From an uncultured Pirellulales bacterium (GTDB lineage Bacteria; Planctomycetota; Phycisphaerae; Sedimentisphaerales; Anaerobacaceae), in assembly GCA_964562575.1 (NCBI GenBank), contig CAZLTY010000033.1:2279-26278 (forward strand): DNA of 24,000 nucleotides, in the 5' to 3' direction. Shown here one piece after another: positions 4,557 through 24,000 of the stretch; within the stretch, counting starts at the first letter, position 1; each line of letters opens with the position of its first letter. The position numbers and the translations under genes are program-made. Below the pieces are notes generated by a model. It saw only the letters and a program-made list of their open reading frames with translations, ran no database searches and was not told the origin of the DNA.

Positions 4557-4640
4557 GACAAGACCTCCTTTTCTGCATATTGACAGTCCTATGATGCCAG
4601 AGTCTCTCCGGATATGCAAGCGTTTGAGGTGTGCATTTTG

Positions 4641-4846
4641 TACCCTTCAGGGCAGTAAATTTCCGCGAGCAGAACTATGAAATGTTATACCCTTCAGGGT
4701 AGTAAATTCTCGCGAGCAAAACCATACCCTGTTATTGTGAGGCCACTTACCCGCGCAAGAACGGGAATTTTAAGTCGGGAACACTATATTGTAAAGCCGC
4801 CTACCCACGCAAGAGCGGGAATTTTCAATCGGGAGCACCATACTTG
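4641..4846 (-). repeat. tandem array of four ~47-54-nt units (order on minus strand R2b-R2a-R1b-R1a); R2a+R1b is one full copy of the bipartite element also found upstream of udk
   Basis: R1a 4641-4687 and R1b 4688-4734 have a 47-nt period. R2a (from 4748) and R2b (from 4802) have a 54-nt period. The minus-sense consensus for R1 is TGCTCGCGRRAATTTACTRCCCTGAAGGGTA. For R2 it is TAKRGTGYTCCCGAYTKAARATTCCCGYTCTTGCGYGGGTARG. The array lies 85-290 nt upstream of the GH-like gene start. Confidence 0.8.
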
Positions 4847-5243: not shown

Positions 5244-5425
5244 TTTTATGTCCTCCCTGAAAAATCTCAGCGGTTGCAATTGACGTCTTAGCCTTTACTA
5301 ATAAAAGGCAGTTGACGAGCATTAGGTAACGTATTCTCCTGGAGGCAGCCTCGGGAAATAAGAAATGTGCTCACTTGAATTCTCCGAGCAGAGCGAGTAG
5401 GATGACAGAAAAAGGAGAACATATC

Positions 5426-6581: not shown

Positions 6582-8249
6582 TCACGAGCAGATTGGCGCA
6601 GAACTGTTTCTCGGCATGATAACTGTGAATTTGGTGCCCTGGCCCTGTCGGCTTTCGACAGATATTTTGCCGGCATGTCTTTCCACTATCTGCTTTACTA
6701 TCGACAGGCCCAATCCCGTGCCGTCTCGTTCGGATTTGCGCGCGTTGCTGGCTCTGAAGAACTCATCGAACACATTCGCCAGTTCGTCTGAGGGTATGCC
6801 GATTCCCGTATCGGCTATGTCTATCTGAACATGGTCGTCATAGCCCCTGGCTTCGAGGTGGACTGTTCTTTTCTCTGGAGTGTACTTGACAGCGTTGAAC
6901 AGCAGGTTGGTGATCATTTCGTTGATAGAGAACTCATGGCCGACAATCTGTCCCAGTGACGAGTCGACATTGGAGCTTACAGTAATCGACTTATCTTTGG
7001 CTTTTCCGGCAACGCTGGCCAGCGCTTCCGATACGCTGTCCGGCAAAGAGAATAATTCCATCTGGAGCTGGCCGCTGAGCCTCATCTGCGTCAGATCCAG
7101 CAGCTCCTTGACGAAGGCGGCAAGCTGGAGGGTGCGGTCAAGTGCCCGGCTCGAGAATTCGTCTCGTTTCTCTTTGGGTAGCTCCGTGGATTCGTCGGTC
7201 GCCACGTAAAGCCAACTGCGTATGGTAGCCAGATGACCCTTGATATCGTGCGTTACACGCGAAACGTACTCGTCCTTTATGCGGTCCTTCTCTTTGAGCT
7301 GGACATTGGCTTCTCTGAGCGATTTCTCCTGCTTTTGCAGTTCGGTGAAGAACAGATTCTTTTGCACAAGGTCTATCTGGCGTGCGGCTGCTTCCACAAA
7401 GTCGAACATCTCCGTCGAGGACCTGTTCTGGAGAACGTCAACATAAAGGGCATCGACGGTTTCACCCAGATCATGTACGCGGGCGCAAAAAACCACATGG
7501 GGTTTGTGCTCGTCGACGATTGTCAGCGCTATGTCATGGTCTGAAGACCTTCCGCTGCTTGCCATCACCGGAGCATTCGTCGAGCGGATCCTATCAAGCA
7601 CGCGTTTGGAAAGATGCAGGGATGATGCCTGATCGACCGACATATCTGTCTGGCCGGCTCCGAAGTGACAGGCAAGGATATTCGGGACCGTTGGTAGGGG
7701 CTCGGAGCTGCAGGGCAGTCTCACGATGGCAACAAGCGTCTCGAGCATCCCGGCCAAACACGAACACGCCTGATCATACAGATCTGACGGGCTAGACAAC
7801 GTGAGCAGGTGATCCGTTAGTTTGTTGAGATCCTGCATGAGAACGGGAGACAGGACGGCGGCCTGGTCTTGGCGGGATACAATTTCCTCCTCGGCAGTTT
7901 CCTCGACAATGGAAATCGTGCTCTGGATGGACGTACCCGGGAGAATCTCCTGGTCGCAGTCCTGTGAGAGGCTCATGGTGAACGGACGTATGCTGATTCG
8001 ATGTCCGGGCACCAGCGCCTGCGCCCTGACTCGTTGGCCATCCACGAACACACCGTTATGGCTGCCCAAGTCCTCGATGATCCACCGCCCGAAAGAATCT
8101 CGGGATATCCTGGCATGATGTCGTGAAACGGCTGCGTCGTCCAGAACAACGCTACAGTCCAAATCTCGTCCGAGCGTCATACCGCCGGGATCGAGCAAAA
8201 TCTCATTGGTCTCTGTCGGCCCGGATACAGTCAGTTTTGCCTCGCCCAT
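6582..8249 (-). CDS. cytoplasmic sensor histidine kinase with N-terminal FHA domain
   Basis: ATG at 8249-8247 is preceded by GAGAGGAA. The FHA signature is MTLGRDLDCSVVLDDAAVSRHHARISRD..WIIEDLGSHNGVFVDG. The H-box is SRVTHDIKGHLATI, the N-box NLLFNAVKYT, G1 DTGIGIP and G2 GTGLGLSIVKQIV. No TM segment was seen. Confidence 0.9.
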   Translation of the reverse strand: MGEAKLTVSGPTETNEILLDPGGMTLGRDLDCSVVLDDAAVSRHHARISRDSFGRWIIEDLGSHNGVFVDGQRVRAQALVPGHRISIRPFTMSLSQDCDQEILPGTSIQSTISIVEETAEEEIVSRQDQAAVLSPVLMQDLNKLTDHLLTLSSPSDLYDQACSCLAGMLETLVAIVRLPCSSEPLPTVPNILACHFGAGQTDMSVDQASSLHLSKRVLDRIRSTNAPVMASSGRSSDHDIALTIVDEHKPHVVFCARVHDLGETVDALYVDVLQNRSSTEMFDFVEAAARQIDLVQKNLFFTELQKQEKSLREANVQLKEKDRIKDEYVSRVTHDIKGHLATIRSWLYVATDESTELPKEKRDEFSSRALDRTLQLAAFVKELLDLTQMRLSGQLQMELFSLPDSVSEALASVAGKAKDKSITVSSNVDSSLGQIVGHEFSINEMITNLLFNAVKYTPEKRTVHLEARGYDDHVQIDIADTGIGIPSDELANVFDEFFRASNARKSERDGTGLGLSIVKQIVERHAGKISVESRQGQGTKFTVIMPRNSSAPICS

Positions 8250-8614
8250 TCGTATGTTCCTCTCATCAAACCATCCGGCCAGCACCACGGCCAATGTTTG
8301 TCAAGTCGTACCTGCCCCCCGGCAGTAGGAAATCTGAACTGATAGTACATCGTCTGGAACGAGCAGGCAAGTCTTTTGTTGAGTTTGCCCTCTGCGCCGT
8401 TTATGCGCCGGCACACGGGCGAATCCTCGACGCTGTGAATCCGCTGCTCTTGGCCCATACTCAAATAGATATCGCGTTATTCAAGGGCAAATCAGTCGTT
8501 TGGCGGCATTTTGAGTATTACTCCTTGATCAAGGACCCTGGTTTCTGGTAGACTTGTTGGAAGGCATCTCAACATTTCTGAGGTTTGCGAGAGTCTGTCT
8601 TGGGACAGTAAGAC

Positions 8615-10537
8615 ATGGGCGTCTGTTTGAGTCAGGAATTGGTTGAACGGTATATAGCTGGAACTTGTTCGGATGACGAGCTACAGGCGATAGAGGTCCA
8701 TCTGGCCGAATGTGAAAGCTGCCGAGAGCAAACCGAATCTGCCCGGTTGAGGATCACCTTGGCGAGCAAGTTAGACTCGGCCCACTTCTCTGGGGCCGCG
8801 AGGGGCGGTTCAGTTGAAAAGACACTTGCGCTTGATGAGTACCCTGTCCAGGCAGAGCCAACAGGGCCGGCAGATCACAGACGGCCCAGCTCATCGCCAG
8901 ATGAAAAGACACGTGTGCTTGAGGATGAACATGCGAATCCGCCGCCGGCCGGACACAACCGCGCCGGGCCAACTGAGCAGACGCTTTCGCTCGACGATGC
9001 CAGTTCGGGCCAAGCCGCATCGCAGTTGACGACGCTCCCATCTGACGGGCAGAACTTTGCCAAAGCGCTGGAGTCTATGATTGCCGGTTACGAGGTCCTG
9101 GAGGAGATGCCGCGAGGAGGTCAGGCGGCGGTTTATAAAGCCATTCACACAGCCACCAAGACAAACGTTGCGATCAAGGTATTACTGCCTACGCTGTTGG
9201 CTTCGGCCAGGGCACGCCACTACTTTGAGAGAGAAGCTGAGCTTATCGCCAGCCTCGACCACCCCAATATTGTCAGCATCCGCGACAGTGGCATCATCAA
9301 CCATCAGTACTACTTTGTGATGCAATACATCGACGGCCAGCCATTGGAGCGATATGTGCGCTTACATAAGCTGTCGTTTCGGGAAACAATCGTGCTGTTC
9401 AACAAAATCTGCGCTGCCATAACTTATGCTCATCAGCAGGGCATTATGCACCGTGACCTCAAATTTGCCAACATTCTTGTGGACAAGCGAGGCGAGCCCC
9501 ACGTGCTGGATTTCGGGCTGGCAAAGGCGGTGGGCCTGAGTGAGAAGTCTCCGGACAAAGCCGTCGCCACGATGACAGGCCAATTGGCCGGAACGCTCTC
9601 GACGATGTCACCGGAGCAGGCAGCCGGTCGGCCCGATCAGATTGACGTGCGTACGGACGTTTATTCTCTAGGTGTTATGCTCTATCGCATGTTGACGGGT
9701 CAATATCCGTATGAAGTTGGCGGCTCTACTCTCGAGGCGCTGCAGAACATCCAGAAGGCCGATCCGGTCAGACCCCGGCAACTTGATCGCAAATTCGACT
9801 CCGATGTCGAGGCCATTCTGCTGACGGCTCTTGCTAAAGATCCTGCTGAGCGATACCAGTCCACTGCCGAGTTGCAGAGTGACACCCAGAACTGGCTTGA
9901 GGGTCGTCCCATTCGCGTAAAGTCGATCAGCACCCTATACCTCTTGCGCAAGATTGTTGCCCGGCATCGATACACAAGTACGGTCGCCGCTTTGCTACTC
10001 TTGATCGTCCTGGGTTTTGCGTACACGTGCCTTGATTTGTATCTAACGGCCGAGAAGGCCCGAAAAGAACAGGTGGCCTACGCTGCGCAGCTAACGGCCC
10101 AGACGGACAGGGCCAAAACGTTGACGCGGTCACTCGTTTTCACCTGTTTCCTGAACGCCTGGAGGCAGGAGAACAGTTTCTTAACCAGGCTGGTGTTTGC
10201 GTACCTATCCGAAGGTTCCAAGGAACGGCAGGCAGCAGTGTTCCTGCTCAGTTCCAAACCTGTGGCAGAGAAAGAGGCTGGTTTTCGCCGGGGTCTGTCG
10301 GAAAAGGACGGCTGGTTCGCAGATTTTATTGTTGGCGAGAATCACCTGCACAGCGGCGACCGAAAAGAGGCGATTGAAGCGTACAGACGCAGCTATGAAA
10401 CCATCCGACAGTTATCGCAGCATGATGACATGAATGTTGGCGGCGTGCTTGTCAATCAGGTCAGGCAGAGATTGGACGAGCTTGATGCCACTGACAAACC
10501 CCCAGAGGAAGGCCAGCAGCGACAGACAGAGATGTAA
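8615..10537 (+). CDS. Ser/Thr protein kinase with N-terminal zf-HC2 (anti-sigma-type) zinc finger, one TM helix and a C-terminal extracytoplasmic helical domain
   Basis: The zf-HC2-like segment is [15 protein letters not shown]. Kinase motifs are [33 protein letters not shown] and SPEQAAG. The TM helix is [22 protein letters not shown]. Confidence 0.9.
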
Positions 10538-11711: not shown

Positions 11712-11872
11712 TAATCGGTCTGTACCGGTAGACTCATTTGTCATTCGGTTGTCCGGGCAAAAGTAGAGAAATCTCTCGGTTTGTGGCAATTGTTACCCTG
11801 AGGAGGTGCCCAATTAACCTTCGCCGAACTGTTTCATACTCTCTGTCGGCACAAAAGAAAGAAGGCTGTAAG

Positions 11873-14851
11873 ATGATCGCCAATCAAGGAGACAGGATTC
11901 TAAGAAAGACTATGCGTTTGTCTGTGGTTCTAATTGCGGTAATGCCTGCCTTGACTGCGTGGGCACCGCCAATCTACACGATTACACCGTCGGCCGGTCC
12001 AAACGGCTCTATATCTCCTGCCAGCGATACTACCGTAAGCCACAGCAGTGATCTTGTCTTTACGGCTGCCGCCGAGACAGGCTATCAGGTGCATAAATGG
12101 TCACTGGACGGCGAGACGGTTCAGAGCGGCGACACCAGTTACACGCTGAGCGATATCCAGTCCAATCACACCGTCGAGGTAACCTTCCGCCAGCTCAAAT
12201 ACGAAGTTACCGGCATAGCCGGCCCCAACGGCTCGATAAGTCCATCCGGCGCCACGACCGTAACCTACGGAAGCGATTTGGCGTTTACGGCTACTGCCGA
12301 GACAGGTTATCAGGTGGACACGTGGTCCGTGGATGGCTCTGTGGTTCAGATCGGCGGCAGCGACTACACGCTAAGCAACATTCAGGCCGACCATGCGGTC
12401 GAGGTGACCTTCCGCCTGTCGGGATACCATGTAACAGGTTCGGCTGGCGCCAACGGCTCGATAAGCCCATCCGGCTCGACGACCGTAACCCCCGGAAGCG
12501 ATTTGGCTTTTACGGCTACTGCCGATGCAGGTCATCAGGTACATAAATGGTCCGTGGACGGCTCTGAGGTTCAAACCGGCGGTACCGACTACACGCTAAG
12601 CAATATTCAGGCCAATCACACGGTCGAGGTAACCTTTCACGCACTTTCGTACACGATAGACGCCACCGCCGGTCCAGGAGGCTCCGTTGATCCTACGGGC
12701 ATTGATGTCCAATACGGCGGCAGCTCTACATTTACGGCAACTCCCGATACCAACTACAGAGTTGACACGTGGTTTCTAGATGGCTCTGTAGCCCAGACAC
12801 GTGGCACTGCCTATTCCACCGGCAACGTCTATACTGATCACACAATTCATGTCACTTTCGTCAAAGTGCAGGTGCTGTCATATTCTCTTGGATCATTTGA
12901 ATTTGAAGACGAGGATGAGTTTAGCAGTCATATTGTCAACAACAACACAGAGTACCCCGATGAAGCTCTGGTTTTCGTCGAGCCGGTGGGTCTCGGACTG
13001 GATCCTGACAACGTCGCGATGGTACTGCACAACCGAAAGGATAATGAGGGCAAGGCGGTCAATGCGCGCGCCAAAGGCATGTTTGTCAAAACGGGCGCTG
13101 ACGAAATCCTGATCTACTTCAATTACTTGTTCAGGACTTCAAACGTTGAGTTAATCGTCTACGTATCAGACTCTCCACTACCGATGGCCCCCGATGATCG
13201 CCTGCGAGAGCAGCACTACATCGAGGTCGCCCGTCTTGCTTCTCCGCCTTTTCCCAGACCGGGTTCAGTTGGGAGTGGGCGCTTTGCAGTCTTTCAAAGA
13301 ATCGTCTGGACAGGCAGCCTGGACTTTGCCAAAGGGCTCTATATCGAACTGGAGCTGGTTGAGCCAGATTTGAACGGTATCCTTTTGGCTAGCCCGGTGC
13401 CGAGGGTACCGGCGGGCAACGGCGGCAGCTCAGTCTACGTTGACAATTGGAGCACCACGGTGCAGTGTTACGGCATCTGTCAGGACATCAACGGGGACAA
13501 CTTTGTCGACGAGGCGGACTTCCTCATGGTTATAGGTGGATGCGGAGGCGATGCATCCGGTGACAGGGCCTGCCTGGAGGGGGCCTTCAGTACCGATGGA
13601 TATACGGATTCCTATGACGTGGCTTCGTGGGACTGGGCCATGAATTCCGATCAGCGTCTCCTGAATTACTGTGGCTTGCCTCTTACAGGTGGGTCCGCAA
13701 GCTTCCAAATGATGAGTGCTCCAATGCTTGCTCCGACAGGTCCCGGTGAGGCTATGGCATTTGCAAACCTGCCCAATGATTTGAGTGACTTGCTGGTACT
13801 AGGCAAGCAGGGGCCTGCCGATGCGCCCAGCAAGCTGAGAGACCGCCTGTACACCTTCGCCAATGATGGCCGATACACTGGATCGTTCGAGCCTGCATCG
13901 GATCGCGGCAACATCAGGCTTATCCAGGGTTCGGAAGGTGGGCTCTACCAACTTAATTCCGAGACGGGTCTGCTTCGGTTGGACAGCACGGACGAAGTGA
14001 TCATACCACCTGGCAAACTCGAGCCCGCCGGCTTCAGGGAACCTCGCTACAATCGGTCCGCTGCGGTCTACATCGGTATTCAGGGCTCGGACGCGGACTC
14101 ATTTGGCCGTCCTATTCTTGACGCGGCTGTGGAGGCGAACCACGTCTATGTTGTTCCGGTTGTGGTCAGTCCTAATGGCGGTCAGGCTTACACGGCGGCA
14201 GCAAAGCTCAAGCTGCTGACCGAAGGGACCGCCCCATACGAACTTGTAGAGCTATACGACGAGCCTCCGCTCTTGCACGATAACCAGTACCGAGACAATC
14301 TGAGAGAGATCGAATTCGACAGTTCAGGCAACCTGTATGTTCTCAACGTGAATTCTCTCAATGAGAGCGACATACTCTGGAGATACAGGCCGGATGGAAC
14401 GATAGATCGCTTGGAACTGGGCAGACCGGACGGCGCCAACTACGTGCCGGATCCTATTGCGATGCACGTCTCACGGACAACTGACGTGCTGTACCTTGCA
14501 TCGGCCGCACTTGATCCGCTGGATCCGGAGTCGACCATTATCTACCGCTTTTCCACTCTGGGTGCCATTACCCTTGAGAAGTCCATTGCGATTCATGGCA
14601 TACAGCATGTGACCAGCATAGCCGAGGATTCGCAAACCGCAGCGATCTGGGTCGCAGGCTTTAATATGCGCAACATCCCTCTGTATCCGAATCCGACCCA
14701 ACCGGCATTCTACTACCCGCGTCTGGCAAGGGTATCATTCGAATACGGCAATGTCTGGCTGGAGTCTCTGTTCGATCCTTCGTCGCATGACCTGGCGCTG
14801 CCGATGTCAATTCTATGGACAGGGGCTGTCGAGCGAAACGCAGTTCAGTAG
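11873..14851 (+). CDS. large secreted/surface protein: 4 tandem InlB-B-repeat-like/Ig-like domains, one dockerin/EF-hand-like Ca-binding loop, C-terminal probable beta-propeller
   Basis: ATG at 11873 follows GAAGG (alternative start ATG 11912). The signal sequence is MRLSVVLIAVMPALTAWA. The repeats read Y.VTG.AGPNGSISPSG.TTVT.GSDLAFTATA.TGYQV..WSVDGS.VQ.GG.DYTLSNIQA.H.VEVTF. DINGDNFVDEADF lies at 13484-13522. The C-terminal part has NHL-like strings (GNLYVLNVNS..., VLYLASA...). Domain names are from memory. Confidence 0.85.
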   Translation: MIANQGDRILRKTMRLSVVLIAVMPALTAWAPPIYTITPSAGPNGSISPASDTTVSHSSDLVFTAAAETGYQVHKWSLDGETVQSGDTSYTLSDIQSNHTVEVTFRQLKYEVTGIAGPNGSISPSGATTVTYGSDLAFTATAETGYQVDTWSVDGSVVQIGGSDYTLSNIQADHAVEVTFRLSGYHVTGSAGANGSISPSGSTTVTPGSDLAFTATADAGHQVHKWSVDGSEVQTGGTDYTLSNIQANHTVEVTFHALSYTIDATAGPGGSVDPTGIDVQYGGSSTFTATPDTNYRVDTWFLDGSVAQTRGTAYSTGNVYTDHTIHVTFVKVQVLSYSLGSFEFEDEDEFSSHIVNNNTEYPDEALVFVEPVGLGLDPDNVAMVLHNRKDNEGKAVNARAKGMFVKTGADEILIYFNYLFRTSNVELIVYVSDSPLPMAPDDRLREQHYIEVARLASPPFPRPGSVGSGRFAVFQRIVWTGSLDFAKGLYIELELVEPDLNGILLASPVPRVPAGNGGSSVYVDNWSTTVQCYGICQDINGDNFVDEADFLMVIGGCGGDASGDRACLEGAFSTDGYTDSYDVASWDWAMNSDQRLLNYCGLPLTGGSASFQMMSAPMLAPTGPGEAMAFANLPNDLSDLLVLGKQGPADAPSKLRDRLYTFANDGRYTGSFEPASDRGNIRLIQGSEGGLYQLNSETGLLRLDSTDEVIIPPGKLEPAGFREPRYNRSAAVYIGIQGSDADSFGRPILDAAVEANHVYVVPVVVSPNGGQAYTAAAKLKLLTEGTAPYELVELYDEPPLLHDNQYRDNLREIEFDSSGNLYVLNVNSLNESDILWRYRPDGTIDRLELGRPDGANYVPDPIAMHVSRTTDVLYLASAALDPLDPESTIIYRFSTLGAITLEKSIAIHGIQHVTSIAEDSQTAAIWVAGFNMRNIPLYPNPTQPAFYYPRLARVSFEYGNVWLESLFDPSSHDLALPMSILWTGAVERNAVQ
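11975..12868 (+). repeat. intragenic tandem repeat, 4 x ~225 nt (75 codons)
   Basis: Units start at 11975, 12200, 12425 and 12650. Units 2 and 3 are very similar at nucleotide level by eye. Units 1 and 4 are more diverged. Confidence 0.85.
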
Positions 14852-16308: not shown

Positions 16309-16382
16309 TTTTGGGCCTTTCAATCCCGCTCGACACATCAGATCAACATTCCAACAACACATGCGGTTGTAAAGCCGGCTAA
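16306..16382 (-). repeat. direct-repeat copy B (native nupC 3' end, stop codon and nupC-EEP spacer)
   Basis: Positions 16314-16361 are identical to 1639-1686. Similarity decays in the flanks, including a ~9-nt indel and a shared caaa(a)ATG. Confidence 0.85.
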
Positions 16383-17816: not shown

Positions 17817-17920
17817 ATATAGTGCTCCCGATTGAAGATTCCCGTTTTTGCGCGGGTGAGTAACCTTACAATAACAGATTATGATCTTGCTCGCGGGAAT
17901 TTACTACCCTTCAAGGGTAT
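17817..17920 (+). promoter_or_regulatory. single copy of the bipartite R2+R1 element, ending 5 nt before the udk start codon
   Basis: It is ~85% identical by hand alignment (about 16 differences in 104) to the minus strand of 4687-4789. It contains a CCCG-tttttgcg-CGGG hairpin, an ATTCCCG...CGGGAAT inverted pair and the palindrome TACCCTTCAAGGGTA (17905-17919). The 3' half of that palindrome, AAGGG, is the likely udk SD. Confidence 0.75.
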
Positions 17921-19378: not shown

Positions 19379-19513
19379 ATGAAATATTTCTTCACAATTC
19401 TAACCTGGTTATTCTTATTGTTTTGTGCGATTGTTTTCTATAGTATATGCAATAGATTTCACCTCATAAAACGTAAAGAACTGGAAATCCTAAAGGAAGA
19501 ACAACATGTCTAA
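19379..19513 (+). CDS. candidate small membrane protein (44 aa), below the ORF-track cutoff
   Basis: The ATG at 19379 gives MKYFFTILTWLFLLFCAIVFYSICNRFHLIKRKELEILKEEQHV, one hydrophobic helix plus a charged tail. The stop TAA at 19511-19513 overlaps the ATG (19506) of the next gene by 8 nt. The SD is weak (AAAGAG) and the segment is AT-rich. Confidence 0.2.
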   Translation: MKYFFTILTWLFLLFCAIVFYSICNRFHLIKRKELEILKEEQHV

Positions 19514-20495
19514 AATAAGAGTAGAAGGCGTCCTCTTCTGTCTCGGTCTGCTGTGTTTCTGCAATGCAACCTCAATCTGCTGCGCAGATGACAACGTCAC
19601 ATTCCGACGACGGCCAGGCAGAGTCGTTATCAATGTTGACGACAAGACGATAGCGACATACGTTTACGGTGACCCGCAGATCTTGCGCCCTTATTTCACC
19701 GGCCTGAGGGCTCCGTCGGGCGTTCAGGTGACACGTCACCATCCACCTCGAAAGGGTATCGACGCCGACGATCATGCGACCATGCACCCGGGCCTGTGGC
19801 TGGCATTCGGAGACATAAGCGGCAACGACTTCTGGCGAAACAAGGCCCGCGTAAAACATGTGGGCTTTTCAAAAGAGCCCTATGCCGGCGAGAAATGCGC
19901 AGGCTTTGCCGTGCGAAATCGATATATGGCAAACGGAAAAGTCATCTGCCAAGAAACCTGCAAGATCACAATCCTCAATCGTCCTGCCGGTTACCTGATT
20001 CTCTGGGATAGCCAATTCACCTCCGATAGAGAATCCTTCTACTTCGGCGATCAGGAAGAGATGGGTCTCGGCATTCGCCTGGCAACCCCCATCGTCGTCA
20101 AGAACAAAAAGGGCGGCAGAATCCTCGACGATCAAGGCAATATCAACGAGAAGAATATCTGGGGCAAGCCGAGTTTATGGTGCGACTACGCAGGCCCGAT
20201 CGACGAGGTCTTTGCAGGTGTTATGATAATGCCCGATCCGGATAATTTCGCCCCCTGCCGATGGCACGTGCGCAACTACGGATTCATGACGGCCAACCCG
20301 TTCGGCAAAAAGGCGTTCAACTTAGGCGCCCCCGGCAAAGTGCTCGTCAATAAAGACAAGCCCCTGCGCCTGAGCTTCGGCATACTCCTGCACAGTTCCA
20401 GCGACGAGAAGTCAATCGACCTCGCCGCCGCGTACAAGGACTATCTGAAGATCAGCGCAGAATTCAAGCGACGATATGCCGTCTCGTTAAAATAG
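19506..20495 (+). CDS. DUF6807 / PmoA-like family protein, secreted
   Basis: AAGGAAG lies upstream of the ATG. The signal-like N-terminus is MSKIRVEGVLFCLGLLCFCNA. Family-typical strings are LRPYFTGLRAPSGVQVT, DHATMHPGLWLAFGDISGNDFW, WCDYAGP and WHVRNYGFMTANPFG. The family was recognised from memory. Confidence 0.75.
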   Translation: MSKIRVEGVLFCLGLLCFCNATSICCADDNVTFRRRPGRVVINVDDKTIATYVYGDPQILRPYFTGLRAPSGVQVTRHHPPRKGIDADDHATMHPGLWLAFGDISGNDFWRNKARVKHVGFSKEPYAGEKCAGFAVRNRYMANGKVICQETCKITILNRPAGYLILWDSQFTSDRESFYFGDQEEMGLGIRLATPIVVKNKKGGRILDDQGNINEKNIWGKPSLWCDYAGPIDEVFAGVMIMPDPDNFAPCRWHVRNYGFMTANPFGKKAFNLGAPGKVLVNKDKPLRLSFGILLHSSSDEKSIDLAAAYKDYLKISAEFKRRYAVSLK

Positions 20496-20609
20496 CCACA
20501 GATTTCACAGATTTCACTGGGGACACTGAGAAAGGCAAAAGCAAAAAGTGAGAAGGAAAAACAGCCGCAGGTGGCCGAGAAATTTGTGCAGATTCGTGTG
20601 AATTAGTGG
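20496..20609. repeat. short intergenic repeat element: tandem CACAGATTT x2 plus an imperfect inverted partner ~70 nt downstream
   Basis: CCACAGATTTCACAGATTTCAC lies at 20496-20517 immediately after the DUF6807 stop. A partial reverse complement, GTGCAGATTCGTGTGAATTAGTGG, lies at 20586-20609. The purine-rich centre is GAAAGGCAAAAGCAAAAAGTGAGAAGGAAAAA. Confidence 0.4.
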
Positions 20610-20812
20610 CCCGCTTCTATCTCTGTGAATCCTGTCTGAGATGCAGAATTCTTTTCTTATCCGCTATCCGCTGCATGCTAAACGCCATCTTTCTTGCCTT
20701 GTTTCCTCCTGTATTCTGTTCTATGCCTTTGCCTGTTGAGAAACGCCCTTATTGGCAGAAGGGCAAAAGTTGTCCACAAGTGACCTTGCGGAAGAGATTA
20801 CGGCGGAAACAG

Positions 20813-20840
20813 TTGTCCCAAGCGGAACGACTGATATAAT
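20813..20840 (+). promoter_or_regulatory. sigma70-like promoter candidate upstream of the reverse transcriptase
   Basis: TTGTCC (20813-20818), a 16-nt spacer, then a perfect TATAAT (20835-20840). This would give a ~160-nt leader before the ATG at 21008. Confidence 0.35.
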
Positions 20841-20846
20841 ATCGAA

Positions 20847-21007
20847 CAGCAACCTTGAGTGAGCAATAGAAGACGCCAAACAAAGAGGCAGACTATTAGG
20901 GCGGCAGATGGATTTTGCATCGAAAGTGTACCGGATATACGGGATATCTTCTTAATTCGCCGCCTTTTATTCGCCCCGACATAAGAACAAACAAAGGAGA
21001 TGGATCT
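20847..21007 (+). ncRNA. candidate structured leader / RT-associated non-coding RNA (hypothesis)
   Basis: GGCGGC (20900-20905) can pair with GCCGCC (20959-20964), enclosing two small hairpins: GATG/CATC at 20907-20921 and GATAT/ATATC at 20934-20948. TTTTATT follows. An alternative partner CGCCCC lies at 20972-20977. No ORF with an SD occurs here. Confidence 0.25.
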
Positions 21008-22585
21008 ATGTCGCTGTATATATCAGAAAGTTCTCTTGAATGGGCTCTCAGGCACATCGAGAGCTATGGTGACACTGATATCTTTCCTTTGGCGTTCGAG
21101 TTTGAGTCAATACGGCATTCTTGGAATTCTAAGCTTCAGAAATTCCTCTCAACACTGGATCTCCACAACTATAGAACTCGTCCTTACCGCCGCTGTTTAT
21201 CGCCGAAGCATCGCTTCGGATTTCGCATTTCAACACAACTCGACCCGCTTGATACGCTGATTTACACAGCGTTGGTCTACGACATTGGCTCTGATATTGA
21301 AGCACGCCGGGTGCCGGCTATCGAACAGGTTGTGCACAGCTATCGATTCAATGCAGACAGTAAGGGGAGATTCTTTGATCCTAATGTTGGCTACGACTCC
21401 TTCATTCAACAATGCAATTACCTTGCTTCATCTGGGAAATTCGGAGCTGTTGTCGTGGCAGACATCGCTGATTTCTTCCCACGGATATATTCGCACCCGC
21501 TTGAAAACGCTTTGCACGCGTGTACACAACATCACGATCACGCAAAGGCCATCATGAGACTGATTAAGCAATGGAACTTCACCGTGTCATATGGAATTCC
21601 AATAGGTCAGACCGCCTCCAGACTGCTGGCGGAACTAGTCATCTCTGATGTTGATCAAGCACTTCTGAGCGAACGCAAAGTATACTGTCGCTACTCTGAT
21701 GATTTTCGTATCTTCTGCACCGATGACAGGGAGGCATACGAAAGCCTCGCCTTTCTCGCAAACGTGCTTTTTGAAAATCATGGCCTGACATTGCAGCAAC
21801 ACAAAACACACATACTACCGGTCCGTGAGTTTCAGAGGAGATACCTTGAAACGGGCTCCAACAAAGAGCGGAACTCATTGACAGAGAAGTTTGCTGACAT
21901 TCTGGATGGACTTGGCATCGATAACTGGTATGAGGAAATTGACTACGACGACCTTGACCATGAAACTCAAGCAAAGATTGATGCTTTGAATCTCGCCGAA
22001 ATTCTAGGTGACCAGATCAGGCGGGGTGGCGATTTGGATCTCAATGTGACGAGATTTGTTTTACGGCGCCTGGCTCAAATCAATGACCACAGTGCGATCC
22101 AGGTTGTTGGAGCAAATTTGGAAGTTCTGTATCCACTCTTCAAAGAAGTCTTGGCATACATCACTTCAATCAGAAGAATTGATTCAGCGTATCGTCGAGA
22201 GTTGGGAAAGTACCTCATCGATCTAATCGAGGCATCGGTTGTCGGGCACTTGGAGTTTCACAAGTGTTGGATCATGAACACTTTCACTAAGGACAGAGAA
22301 TGGGACAATGAGGCCGAATTCGCGGCTCTCTATAACTCCAATAATGATGAGTTTTCAAGGCGAGAACTCACATTAGCTCTTGGACGGGCTGGGCAAGAAC
22401 ATTGGTTCAAGACACGAAAACGGAACGTATTCCAATTAGGCCCTTGGGAACGACGCGCGTTTCTTGCTGCGATCAGTTCTTTGCCTGGCGATGAAGCAAA
22501 ACATTGGTACGGCTCAATATTCAGACAGTTGGACGAGCTTGAGCAAGCAGTTGTAAATTGGGCAAGAGCGTATCCTTTCCAGTAA
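21008..22585 (+). CDS. reverse transcriptase, UG/Abi (defence-associated, DRT-like) architecture: N-terminal extension + RT core + C-terminal alpha-helical repeat domain
   Basis: AAGGAG lies 8 nt upstream of the ATG at 21008. The RT motifs are in order: RFGFRISTQLDPLDTLIYTALV (1-2), VVVADIADFFPRIYSHPL (A), GIPIGQTASRLLAELVISDVD (B), YCRYSDDFRIFC (C, YSDD), HGLTLQQHKTHIL (D/E). The last ~200 aa are helix-rich and repeat-like. There is no maturase X/EN, no Cas, and no co-directional neighbour ORF. Confidence 0.9.
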   Translation: MSLYISESSLEWALRHIESYGDTDIFPLAFEFESIRHSWNSKLQKFLSTLDLHNYRTRPYRRCLSPKHRFGFRISTQLDPLDTLIYTALVYDIGSDIEARRVPAIEQVVHSYRFNADSKGRFFDPNVGYDSFIQQCNYLASSGKFGAVVVADIADFFPRIYSHPLENALHACTQHHDHAKAIMRLIKQWNFTVSYGIPIGQTASRLLAELVISDVDQALLSERKVYCRYSDDFRIFCTDDREAYESLAFLANVLFENHGLTLQQHKTHILPVREFQRRYLETGSNKERNSLTEKFADILDGLGIDNWYEEIDYDDLDHETQAKIDALNLAEILGDQIRRGGDLDLNVTRFVLRRLAQINDHSAIQVVGANLEVLYPLFKEVLAYITSIRRIDSAYRRELGKYLIDLIEASVVGHLEFHKCWIMNTFTKDREWDNEAEFAALYNSNNDEFSRRELTLALGRAGQEHWFKTRKRNVFQLGPWERRAFLAAISSLPGDEAKHWYGSIFRQLDELEQAVVNWARAYPFQ

Positions 22586-22747
22586 GAGAATGGATTTTGG
22601 CGTTGCGAACTAGACAGGGTGGGGGGAATGACCAATGGGCGTCCAATCTGTTACACGCTGTGCTCGGACCAAGCCTTAGAAACCTACCTATGCTCTCATT
22701 TGGAAGACGTCGAGGTCGCCGTCATACGAATCGTGGTCTGTAAGGGC

Positions 22748-22834
22748 TCAGACGTAGTTGAACATCAGCTTTGTGTTGGGGCTGAAATAACGGTTCAAGC
22801 CGACGGTGACGTCGTTCCCGAATATCCGGCGCAC
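22748..22834 (-). pseudogene. C-terminal remnant (about 22-28 codons) of a phosphate-selective-porin (OprO/P)-like outer-membrane protein gene
   Basis: The minus-strand reading ...FGNDVTVGLNRYFSPNTKLMFNYV* resembles the conserved porin O/P C-terminus (..tlGlNWYln.nvklm.NY..) from memory. The upstream continuation runs straight into a terminator hairpin and is unrelated. Confidence 0.4.
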
Positions 22835-22865
22835 AAAAAAAAGCCTGGCGAGGTGCGCGCCAGGC
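22835..22865 (-). terminator. rho-independent terminator (minus strand), ~250 nt downstream of the TPR gene stop
   Basis: The 8-bp stem GCCTGGCG (22843-22850) pairs with CGCCAGGC (22858-22865) around a 7-nt loop. On the minus strand it is followed by eight T (22842-22835). Confidence 0.75.
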
Positions 22866-23115
22866 AATTGAAAGGAGACCACAGCGATTCTCGCCGGGTC
22901 TCAGAGATCCGATTCCCTTGAGCCCTCAGTCAATCCACATTCATATTGCTGTCGGCATCTCATTGAGGTCGATTACAGTCTCTACAATAGGCTCATCGGC
23001 CAATAAGATTTGAAAACTTGAGAAAATAGCAGCTCATGGGGATAAGCCGGCCCCGGCCCTGACGCCGAACTCGGCCATCCGCGCTCGCAGGCTCTGACCC
23101 GGACAAGTGGTGTGT

Positions 23116-24000
23116 CTAGTTGAGCTTGAGATTCAGCTCGAACTTGTTGGACATATCCTCAACGTCCGTCTTCAACGTGCGATCCAATTCGACTGCTTGC
23201 AGCATTCCGCTTCTTGCTTTGTCATGCTCGGCCAAGTAGGCGTAGCTGATTGCCCGCATGTAGTAGGCCCTGGCAGTGTCCGGATTGAACTCGATGGCCT
23301 TTGTGTAATCCGAGACGGCCCGGGCATAGTGGCTCTCCGCAAGGTGGGCATATCCTCGCCCCATATATGCCTTGGCAAAATCCGGATAGAGTTCAAGGGT
23401 GTTAGTGTAATCCAGGATGGCCCGGGTGTATCGACCTGAGCCCAGGTAGGCGTTTGCCCGGTTGTGATAGGCGCTGCCATATCTCGCATCAAGTTCAATA
23501 GCCTGGTTGAAATTGGAGATAGCCTCGGTGTATTGGCCCAATGCGAGATAGGCGCCGCCTCGATTGTTGTAGGCCTTGGCACATTGTGGATTGAACTCGA
23601 TGGCCCTTTCATAGTCAGATATGGCTTGCGCGCTGCGACCTGACATGTAGTTGACCGTTCCACGGCAGAAGTACACTTCGCCAACTAACTCGTTCTTGTC
23701 CAGGATGTGAATTGTCTTGTTGTTCCTTACGAGGTTGCCTTTGTTCTCGAATCTCCAGAGACTGCCATTTCCTTCGAATTTGGCGTCCGTGATGATGCGT
23801 TCACTGACAAAACCATCTGAACTTGTCAGGTCGACCACGGTCATTGTGCCGTCGGACAAGACAACAATATTGGCTATGTGTTCCGGCATCACGCTCGCGG
23901 GCCAGACTGATAGTCTGATGGAACCGCCCAGGATATACAGTAGTTGTGAATACCCGAAGCAATTAGCTACCTCACTCTCAATTACATCAGCCAAATCAAA
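23116..24000 (-). CDS. TPR-repeat protein (5' end outside the window)
   Basis: The frame is open to nt 24000, and the track start at 23994 is an internal TTG. At least 5 TPR units are present (AISDYERAIEFNPQCAKAYNNRGGAY, AISNFNQAIELDARYGSAYHNRANAY, AILDYTNTLELYPDFAKAYMGRGYAH, AVSDYTKAIEFNPDTARAYYMRAISY ...). They are preceded by an unassigned ~110-aa region. Confidence 0.85.
   Translation of the reverse strand, partial: FDLADVIESEVANCFGYSQLLYILGGSIRLSVWPASVMPEHIANIVVLSDGTMTVVDLTSSDGFVSERIITDAKFEGNGSLWRFENKGNLVRNNKTIHILDKNELVGEVYFCRGTVNYMSGRSAQAISDYERAIEFNPQCAKAYNNRGGAYLALGQYTEAISNFNQAIELDARYGSAYHNRANAYLGSGRYTRAILDYTNTLELYPDFAKAYMGRGYAHLAESHYARAVSDYTKAIEFNPDTARAYYMRAISYAYLAEHDKARSGMLQAVELDRTLKTDVEDMSNKFELNLKLN

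Follow-up and report, generated by a model that had tools for sequence, protein, structure and literature searches.

A stand-alone DRT8/UG7 reverse transcriptase gene in a Planctomycetota-like genome: family, mobility and possible mode of action

Can a reverse transcriptase (RT) gene that stands by itself, apart from any partner gene or template RNA, serve as an anti-phage defence system? The question is raised by a locus in a 24,000-nucleotide (nt) stretch of DNA (contig CAZLTY010000033.1, positions 2,279 to 26,278, assembly GCA_964562575.1; hereafter the window), which is assigned to an uncultured Pirellulales bacterium and encodes an RT of 525 amino acids (aa). A sequence-only reading of the window had proposed a horizontally acquired single-gene defence enzyme of the UG/Abi type. 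Judged by profile matching, the gene is an intact member of the already named defence family DRT8/UG7, in its stand-alone variant, and comparison with close relatives indicates that it travels as a bare gene. How such a gene might act is weighed below against four other explanations.

Family and predicted fold of the reverse transcriptase

The assignment is carried by the PADLOC Drt8 profile, which scores 544 bits (E=1.2e-163) and aligns residues 6-520 of the protein with profile positions 3-490 of 493. The runner-up group, UG21, reaches 166 bits (E=4e-49) and is followed by UG23, UG32, UG19, UG20 and UG22; Drt4, Drt6 and AbiP2 score 77, 73 and 65 bits. None of the NCBIfam models for Drt2-5, group II intron RTs or retron RTs came near its cut-off, with sub-threshold scores of 63 bits for group II (cut-off 300), 39 for retrons (235) and 28 for Drt2 (390). 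Membership was judged by profile match, and equating PADLOC Drt8 with UG7 relies on the nomenclature of Mestre 2022 (PMC9226505), where UG7 is DRT type 8, a Class 1 UG/Abi RT that was named and found to be anti-phage in 2022. Class 1 is defined there by a C-terminal HEAT-like alpha-repeat (alphaRep) domain, and Class 2 comprises the RTs without an additional domain, including UG2/DRT2 and UG28/DRT9; DRT2 and Drt3a, both of Class 2, operate with non-coding RNAs (ncRNAs) and without alphaRep (PMC9226505). The sequence-only reading thus recognised a UG/Abi RT of DRT type with an alpha-repeat domain, as the Drt8 profile and the structural matches below confirm, but it attached the class 2 label to the very architecture that defines Class 1. 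Its suggestion of an unplaceable or undescribed lineage gives way to a full-length match to a family that has had a name since 2022 and counts hundreds of homologues.

Among the candidates scored, 926 homologues were counted at E<1e-5, and 313 loci were found on one-genome-per-species contigs. These loci span Planctomycetota, Bacillota, Chloroflexota, Cyanobacteria, Pseudomonadota, Acidobacteriota and others, and Vibrio, Pseudomonas and Gilliamella form the core of a second subclade at ~29% identity. Distant members with 27-33% identity likewise score best against Drt8. The nearest genome matches are metagenome-assembled genomes of Sedimentisphaerales and Pirellulales (69-73%), which, together with the DUF1559/N-methyl proteins encoded in the window, is consistent with a Planctomycete host.

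The open reading frame (ORF) contains the expected parts in the expected order (Table 1). All of the elements from which the gene had first been recognised (AAGGAG, ADIADFF, GIPIGQTASRLLAEL and YSDD) were located, and Pfam RVT_1 matches the protein above its cut-off (E=7e-12). Throughout 78 relatives D152, D231, D232 and K266 are invariant. The N-terminal region, earlier described as an extension, is indeed present; in the same relatives it is the best-conserved portion of the family, which makes it an integral domain and no add-on. Its motif, being the most conserved peptide pattern, was chosen for finding loci. An alternative TTG start at 20915 was rejected, as the homology with close relatives starts only at 20977; since the relatives' proteins moreover align from residue 1, position 21008 was taken as the real start.

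Table 1. Features of the RT locus, in window coordinates
Feature	Coordinates	Strand	Residues	Remarks
DRT8/UG7 RT gene	21008..22585	+	525 aa	ATG start; ORF, PADLOC Drt8 and Pfam RVT_1
Conserved mobile unit	20977..22602	+		RT gene with ~31 nt 5' (ribosome-binding region) and ~17 nt 3'; blastn
Shine-Dalgarno AAGGAG	20994..20999	+		8 nt 5' of ATG; letters inspected; kept in L082
N-terminal family motif SLEWALRHIESYGDTDIFPLAFEFESI	21032..21112	+	9-35	D22, F26, P27, F30 and E31 at least 97% conserved (78 relatives)
RT palm/fingers core	21419..21817	+	138-270	Pfam RVT_1
Motif A, ADIADFF	21458-21478	+	151-157	
Motif B, GIPIGQTASRLLAEL	21593-21637	+	196-210	
Motif C, YSDD	21692-21703	+	229-232	
Acidic flexible linker GIDNWYEEIDYDDLD	21914..21958	+	303-317	Contains Y308; coil in the AlphaFold2 model
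C-terminal alphaRep domain	21959..22570	+	318-521	AlphaFold2 all-helical; Foldseek full-length alignments
Possible promoter TTGTCC-16-TGnTATAAT	20813..20840	+		Consensus scan, 10/12 matches; weak evidence

AlphaFold2, supplied with a 41-sequence alignment, returned a model with a predicted local distance difference test score (pLDDT) of 89 and a predicted template modelling score (pTM) of 0.88. In this model an N-terminal helical region is followed by the RT core, a coil at residues 303-317 and an all-helical domain at 318-521, the latter predicted with 12 helices, 0 strands and a pLDDT of ~80-97. The 10-residue blocks of lowest pLDDT, 281-290 (60) and 301-310 (67), adjoin the coil linker. When the model was compared with the PDB by Foldseek, the top match was the DRT6 hexamer 9wy8 with a template modelling (TM) score of 0.60, followed by UG15/DRT4, Abi-P2, AbiA and AbiK (AbiK TM up to 0.61), with ~490-640 columns, about the whole chain, aligned. 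Query TM-scores were lower, 0.34-0.45, for the RTs of group II introns, diversity-generating retroelements (DGRs) and retrons, with 0.38-0.45 for the group II and DGR enzymes. The helix-rich C-terminus seen by eye in the sequence is therefore predicted to be an alphaRep domain and not a maturase or thumb-X domain. A sequence search of the PDB found no DRT8 structure, and its best match covers the RT core only (E about 1e-16).

The best structural matches, DRT6 (UG12) and DRT4 (UG15) (9wy8, 9l9s, 9vdo), are like the window RT single genes that combine an RT with alphaRep, and their palm motif IYSH aligns with it at Y161. They differ in being only ~15% identical in sequence and in belonging to other PADLOC families; the additional conserved N-terminal motif belongs to DRT8. 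AbiK and Abi-P2 (7r06, 7z0z, 7r08) share the predicted fold over its full length (AbiK Y44F, TM 0.61; Abi-P2, E=1.7e-11) but are also other sequence families (AbiP2 65 bits, as above). AbiA of Lactococcus (8oz7) is again a Class 1 RT with alphaRep, although it carries an extra C-terminal HEPN-type module and gives a lower TM of 0.41-0.48.

A bare gene in unrelated flanks

The window was compared by blastn with the loci of two close relatives. The DNA in common with the 92%-identical relative (L082, aa identity) is confined to 20977-22602, that is from 31 nt before to 17 nt after the gene, and that in common with the 86%-identical relative (L081) to 20986-22589. Between each other these two loci share only positions -65 to +6, and all three copies sit in unrelated flanks. 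Since the gene is shared without its flanks, the inherited unit is the bare gene with its ribosome-binding region. Neither an accessory gene nor a flanking ncRNA such as those of DRT2 and DRT9 can then have been inherited along with it. On these alignments the RT is shown to move between contexts as a mobile single-gene unit. The possible promoter listed in Table 1 falls outside this unit and is not kept in relatives, and the number of promoter-like sites found around the gene by the consensus scan is not above shuffle expectation.

The spacers on either side gave no sign of a conserved RNA. Neither blastn nor nhmmer found a related flank when both spacers were searched against 80 related loci, and an all-vs-all comparison of the flanks of these loci revealed nothing conserved past same-genus pairs. 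No RNA family was accepted for the RT flanks from Rfam at E<=1, the upstream region folds no better than its shuffles (z-scores of -0.2 and +0.4), and no template- or variable-type repeats (TR/VR) were found near the RT gene.

The composition of the gene sets it apart from its surroundings. It has 46.7% GC and a third-codon-position GC (GC3) of 0.49, and all neighbour genes are higher, with GC3 values of 0.54-0.69. The contrast reported earlier is thus real, but its size had been overstated, because the kinase gene and the glycoside hydrolase (GH)-like gene have 55.4% and 56.4% GC instead of ~62%, and the window outside the locus has 53.4%. The 510-nt spacer upstream of the RT is low as well (GC 0.46), and it is not common to the closest relatives of the RT. 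The closest syntenic contig (L091) matches the window in its LOG and DUF6807 genes (92% and 85% identity) and is without the RT. Its homology breaks off precisely with the DUF6807 stop codon (window 20497), beyond which ECF sigma, kinase and Kelch genes continue; we therefore rejected it as a clean empty site and regard it as a synteny breakpoint. A direct tandem motif, CACAGATTTCACAGATTTCAC, lies at 20497-20517, right after the DUF6807 stop and at the end of this homology.

The ratio of non-synonymous to synonymous substitution rates (dN/dS) of the RT is 0.15 against L082 and 0.07 against L081, which, together with the invariant catalytic residues, indicates that selection has kept the gene intact. 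Taken with the low GC3 and the RT-less syntenic contig, these ratios speak for a gene that came in horizontally and is under purifying selection. On the explanation preferred here, a Planctomycetota-like genome took up the RT by horizontal transfer, as a unit of one gene, in agreement with the earlier proposal of horizontal acquisition.

Partner genes and possible mode of action

The genes around the RT were examined for a partner. The sequence-only reading held that no co-directional ORF of at least 60 aa lies within ~0.5 kb, which is incorrect: three such ORFs are present on the + strand, at 20606-20839 (77 aa), 22558-22743 (61 aa) and 22619-22921 (100 aa). Within the last of these, a 97-aa gene at 22628-22921 (+), starting 43 nt 3' of the RT, is annotated by gene callers in two metagenome assemblies that contain this same contig. 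It is weakly coding-like (codon-position GC 0.63/0.41/0.56), and it adjoins no other RT locus. Neither this ORF nor the 77-aa ORF had any match in Pfam and PADLOC scans. More widely, the surroundings are of a housekeeping kind, with uridine kinase, LOG, DUF6807, TPR, PASTA and sulfatase genes.

A recurrent neighbour family was sought by clustering the ORFs within +/-3 kb of 80 genome loci with blastp, and none was found; phmmer comparison of the directly adjacent co-directional ORFs at these loci likewise gave nothing recurrent, and no common neighbour emerged from viral, plasmid, Vibrio, Pseudomonas and Gilliamella loci either. In total, the partner-gene comparison covers ~100 related loci. 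The second claim of this kind in the earlier account, namely that maturase or endonuclease, Cas1 and DGR parts as well as a conserved partner gene are absent, was upheld. In addition, no PD-(D/E)XK or PNP gene is present among the Pfam-annotated called genes in ~21.6 kb around the RT, or in the Pfam and PADLOC scans of the window ORFs. Nuclease-paired DRT8 was also sought in viral contigs, in plasmids, and by a Vibrio-seeded protein search followed by three contexts, where no PD-(D/E)XK partner was identified; phage records and, by blastn, E. coli genomes gave no match. At one locus (L090), the upstream gene was considered as a nuclease partner and rejected, as it matches PD-T4-10_B and no nuclease family.

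Published UG7 variants either occur with a PD-(D/E)XK nuclease-like gene (cluster 17) or stand alone, as do 165 of 358 members (PMC9226505). With no adjacent nuclease and no conserved partner, the locus fits the stand-alone variant. It shares with the two-gene form the RT family by full-length Drt8 match, the combination of RT and alphaRep and an intact catalytic YxDD, and it differs in the nuclease partner, which is absent here and in the related loci examined.

The homologues elsewhere occur in varied company. Some adjoin genes for OLD/Gabija-like (GajA-like) ATPases and Lamassu LmuA. On the Aminobacter plasmid pANY103b (L085, 3992-7677), a DRT8-like RT with 33% identity is preceded by a DUF87 ATPase gene and directly followed by a second, different gene annotated as 'reverse transcriptase family protein'; possibly, several RTs form a defence cluster there. 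In V. cholerae (L172, 3832-3983 and 5574-5725; also L171), attC/VCR repeats of the superintegron bracket a single-gene DRT8-family cassette whose RT is ~29% identical to the window RT; the neighbouring cassettes encode toxin-antitoxin, acetyltransferase and glyoxalase functions, and another RVT_1 gene lies two cassettes upstream in L172. The window RT itself was rejected as an integron cassette, as neither an integrase nor a shared 3' sequence resembling attC was found, the cassette form being seen only in Vibrio. In L082, the locus of the 92%-identical RT, the upstream gene (2-586) encodes a protein with a CyanoTRADDas_TM domain (E=1.8e-7). CyanoTRADDas_TM is linked to conflict systems; if that link holds, the context of this relative is more defence-like than that of the window copy.

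What, then, might a stand-alone DRT8 do? The characterised single-gene Class 1 enzymes (AbiK, Abi-P2, AbiA, DRT4 and DRT6) are oligomeric, protein-primed, template-independent DNA polymerases, of which DRT4 and DRT6 form hexamers that make single-stranded DNA (ssDNA) (PMC12783706), and AbiK and Abi-P2 are the paradigm. A single-gene defence role for the window RT is plausible, and on balance we lean towards a horizontally acquired, stand-alone Class 1 defence RT of the DRT8 family that works like these enzymes. In such a system the oligomeric RT would use a tyrosine of its own as the primer for DNA synthesis, in the manner of AbiA, and would then extend ssDNA without a template. On phage infection the DNA-protein product, or something activated by it, would accumulate and stop the infected cell (abortive infection), as with DRT4 and DRT6.

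The priming tyrosine is known to lie in different places in these enzymes: it is Y44 in AbiK, Y61 in Abi-P2, Y125 in DRT4 and Y298/303, in the RT-alphaRep linker, in AbiA (PMC12783706). Those of AbiK and Abi-P2 lie in a fingers loop. In the window RT, the linker tyrosine Y308 lies in the acidic coil GIDNWYEEIDYDD and is present in 76 of 78 loci, where it is the only tyrosine at least 90% conserved. It was found in 121 of 121 proteins of the clade to which the window RT belongs, and 235 of 237 family proteins from both subclades have a tyrosine in the linker, which resembles the position of Tyr298/303 in AbiA. Over the same 237 proteins, Y384 in the alphaRep domain and Y161 in the palm each reach a conservation of at least 97% in either subclade; Y161, however, aligns with a tyrosine of DRT4 and DRT6 that is not the primer there. 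We infer that Y308 is the best candidate for priming, a role that remains a candidate one, with Y384 as an alternative.

Several points weigh against the reading of a self-sufficient defence enzyme. The RT locus lies outside any defence island. The sole experimentally validated DRT8 is the two-gene form, which requires its PD-(D/E)XK partner: the UG7 RT and nuclease together protect E. coli against T5, and the active sites of both are needed (PMC9226505). In some DRT8 members, the Cap17 ATP nucleosidase takes the place of the nuclease. The nuclease requirement and this exchange suggest that the RT might sense or activate and not itself do the killing. In DRT4 the priming Y125 aligns (by hidden Markov model alignment) opposite Y129, a column that holds tyrosine in 38, tryptophan in 34 and phenylalanine in 6 of the 78 relatives; the DRT4 site is thus not conserved, and Y129 cannot be a primer throughout the family. 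Moreover, DRT7, also of Class 1, is reported to be protein-templated and not random, so that the type of product is not inferable from class alone. The literature searched has no biochemical or structural study of DRT8, and a 2026 overview describes its "mechanism not yet established".

In favour of self-sufficiency, the independent mobility, the purifying selection and the occurrence as an integron cassette argue, indirectly, that the bare gene is selectable alone. The stronger proposal, that stand-alone DRT8 is an autonomous one-gene immune system whose effector is Y308-primed DNA, untemplated or protein-specified, with the nuclease and Cap17 as optional amplifiers, is put forward tentatively, as a possibility that is less probable than the general reading.

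The main rival explanation is one that we hold to be unlikely: the window RT would be the orphan sensor half of a two-component DRT8, which only senses infection or makes a signalling DNA, has its effector lost or encoded elsewhere, and confers no defence alone. The requirement for the nuclease active site in validated UG7, an earlier failure of the RT-alone test by Gao (PMC9226505) and the exchangeability of Cap17 and nuclease as effectors all speak for it. Against an orphan stands the finding that about half of the UG7 members lack the nuclease gene and that the ~100 loci examined have no conserved partner. The bare gene is, furthermore, mobile and under purifying selection, occurs as a one-gene cassette in Vibrio, and has no PD-(D/E)XK or PNP gene in the annotations and scans described above.

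A non-defence role, in which the RT has been domesticated for housekeeping in a Planctomycete, for instance in DNA-damage tolerance or other untemplated DNA synthesis, would account for the housekeeping neighbours, the absence of a defence island and the purifying selection. We regard it as improbable, in view of the low GC3 (0.49 vs 0.54-0.69), the absence from the syntenic contig and the patchy distribution across many phyla and contexts. Family members, besides, adjoin Gabija/OLD-like and Lamassu genes and sit in integron cassettes. Taken together, these features are typical of a defence gene that is accessory and mobile.

Still further down, we consider it very improbable that the RT is templated by an ncRNA, as in the DRT2, DRT3 and DRT9 types, with the template encoded in the 510-nt upstream or the 530-nt downstream spacer. 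Both spacers are sizable and non-coding, and the upstream one has the low GC of the gene. DRT2 and DRT9 resemble the window RT in having one protein-coding gene and in being defence RTs of the UG/Abi lineage, but they have no alphaRep and depend on a template ncRNA that is conserved upstream of the gene. At the window RT an RNA of this sort was not found: neither spacer recurs in the 92% and 86% relatives, none of the 80 loci has a related flank, Rfam gave no match and folding was no better than in shuffles. The predicted alphaRep Class 1 fold, moreover, groups the RT with AbiK, Abi-P2, AbiA, DRT4 and DRT6, which are template-independent, and among alphaRep systems only DRT3 (UG3+UG8), which has two RTs, is known to use an ncRNA.

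An RT of a group II intron, a retron or a DGR is refuted by the tests run, as the similarity is weak, sub-threshold and limited to the RT core, no intron, msr/msd or other RNA family and no TR/VR-type repeat was detected nearby, and the C-terminus is alphaRep and not maturase X/thumb, with 544 bits to Drt8.

Other features of the window and meaning for the family

A strong hairpin resembling an intrinsic terminator (8 bp, 7 of them GC, followed by T8) lies on the minus strand at 22843-22865, where it overlaps the 97-aa ORF of the + strand, ~250 nt downstream of the stop of the TPR gene at 23116. In Rfam it weakly matches a family of toxic sRNAs (E=0.51, below the gathering threshold), which probably reflects the terminator itself. 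The hairpin suggests that the TPR gene has a long 3' untranslated region (UTR) or that a small transcript of the minus strand is missing from the annotation. Elsewhere in the window, a Ser/Thr kinase with an N-terminal zf-HC2 finger of the anti-sigma type (8615-10537), 10 kb away from the RT, matches the PD-T4-6 kinase models of PADLOC strongly (E=9e-77), and a divergent gene beside it encodes an FHA-HATPase protein (6582-8294). The PD-T4-6 match is probably generic kinase-domain similarity and no defence system.

The window also contains two families of intergenic repeats. One, of ~95-100 nt with 47-nt tandem sub-repeats (4635-4728), lies at 4696-4789 in a repeat region that extends over 4635-4842 and has an inverted copy with 85% identity at 17817-17910. 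The other is a 57-nt element found at 1639-1695 and 16314-16370 with 96% identity. Further copies occur in L083 at 19497-19599, 6810-6913 and 5307-5374. Both families lie just upstream of genes and could be shared promoter or 5'-UTR elements, or could be of the miniature inverted-repeat transposable element (MITE) kind. Finally, ORF 11738-14851, which encodes a 1037-aa protein with Flg_new_2 repeats and is split in two in the metagenome assembly L084, contains three tandem 225-nt (75-aa) repeats at 11993-12667 with 69-71% identity.

As a record, the window adds one more DRT8 gene, from an under-sampled phylum, to a family that is already hundreds strong, and this leaves existing knowledge unchanged. 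Its modest value lies in the fact that DRT8 is among the DRT types without a published mechanism or structure, validation having so far been of the two-gene form. The ~30-nt flank, the failure to find an ncRNA or a partner and the near-universal linker tyrosine define a minimal construct and the sites for point mutants. If the autonomous reading is true, DRT8 would gain its first mechanism, and AbiA would no longer be the single example of priming on a linker tyrosine.

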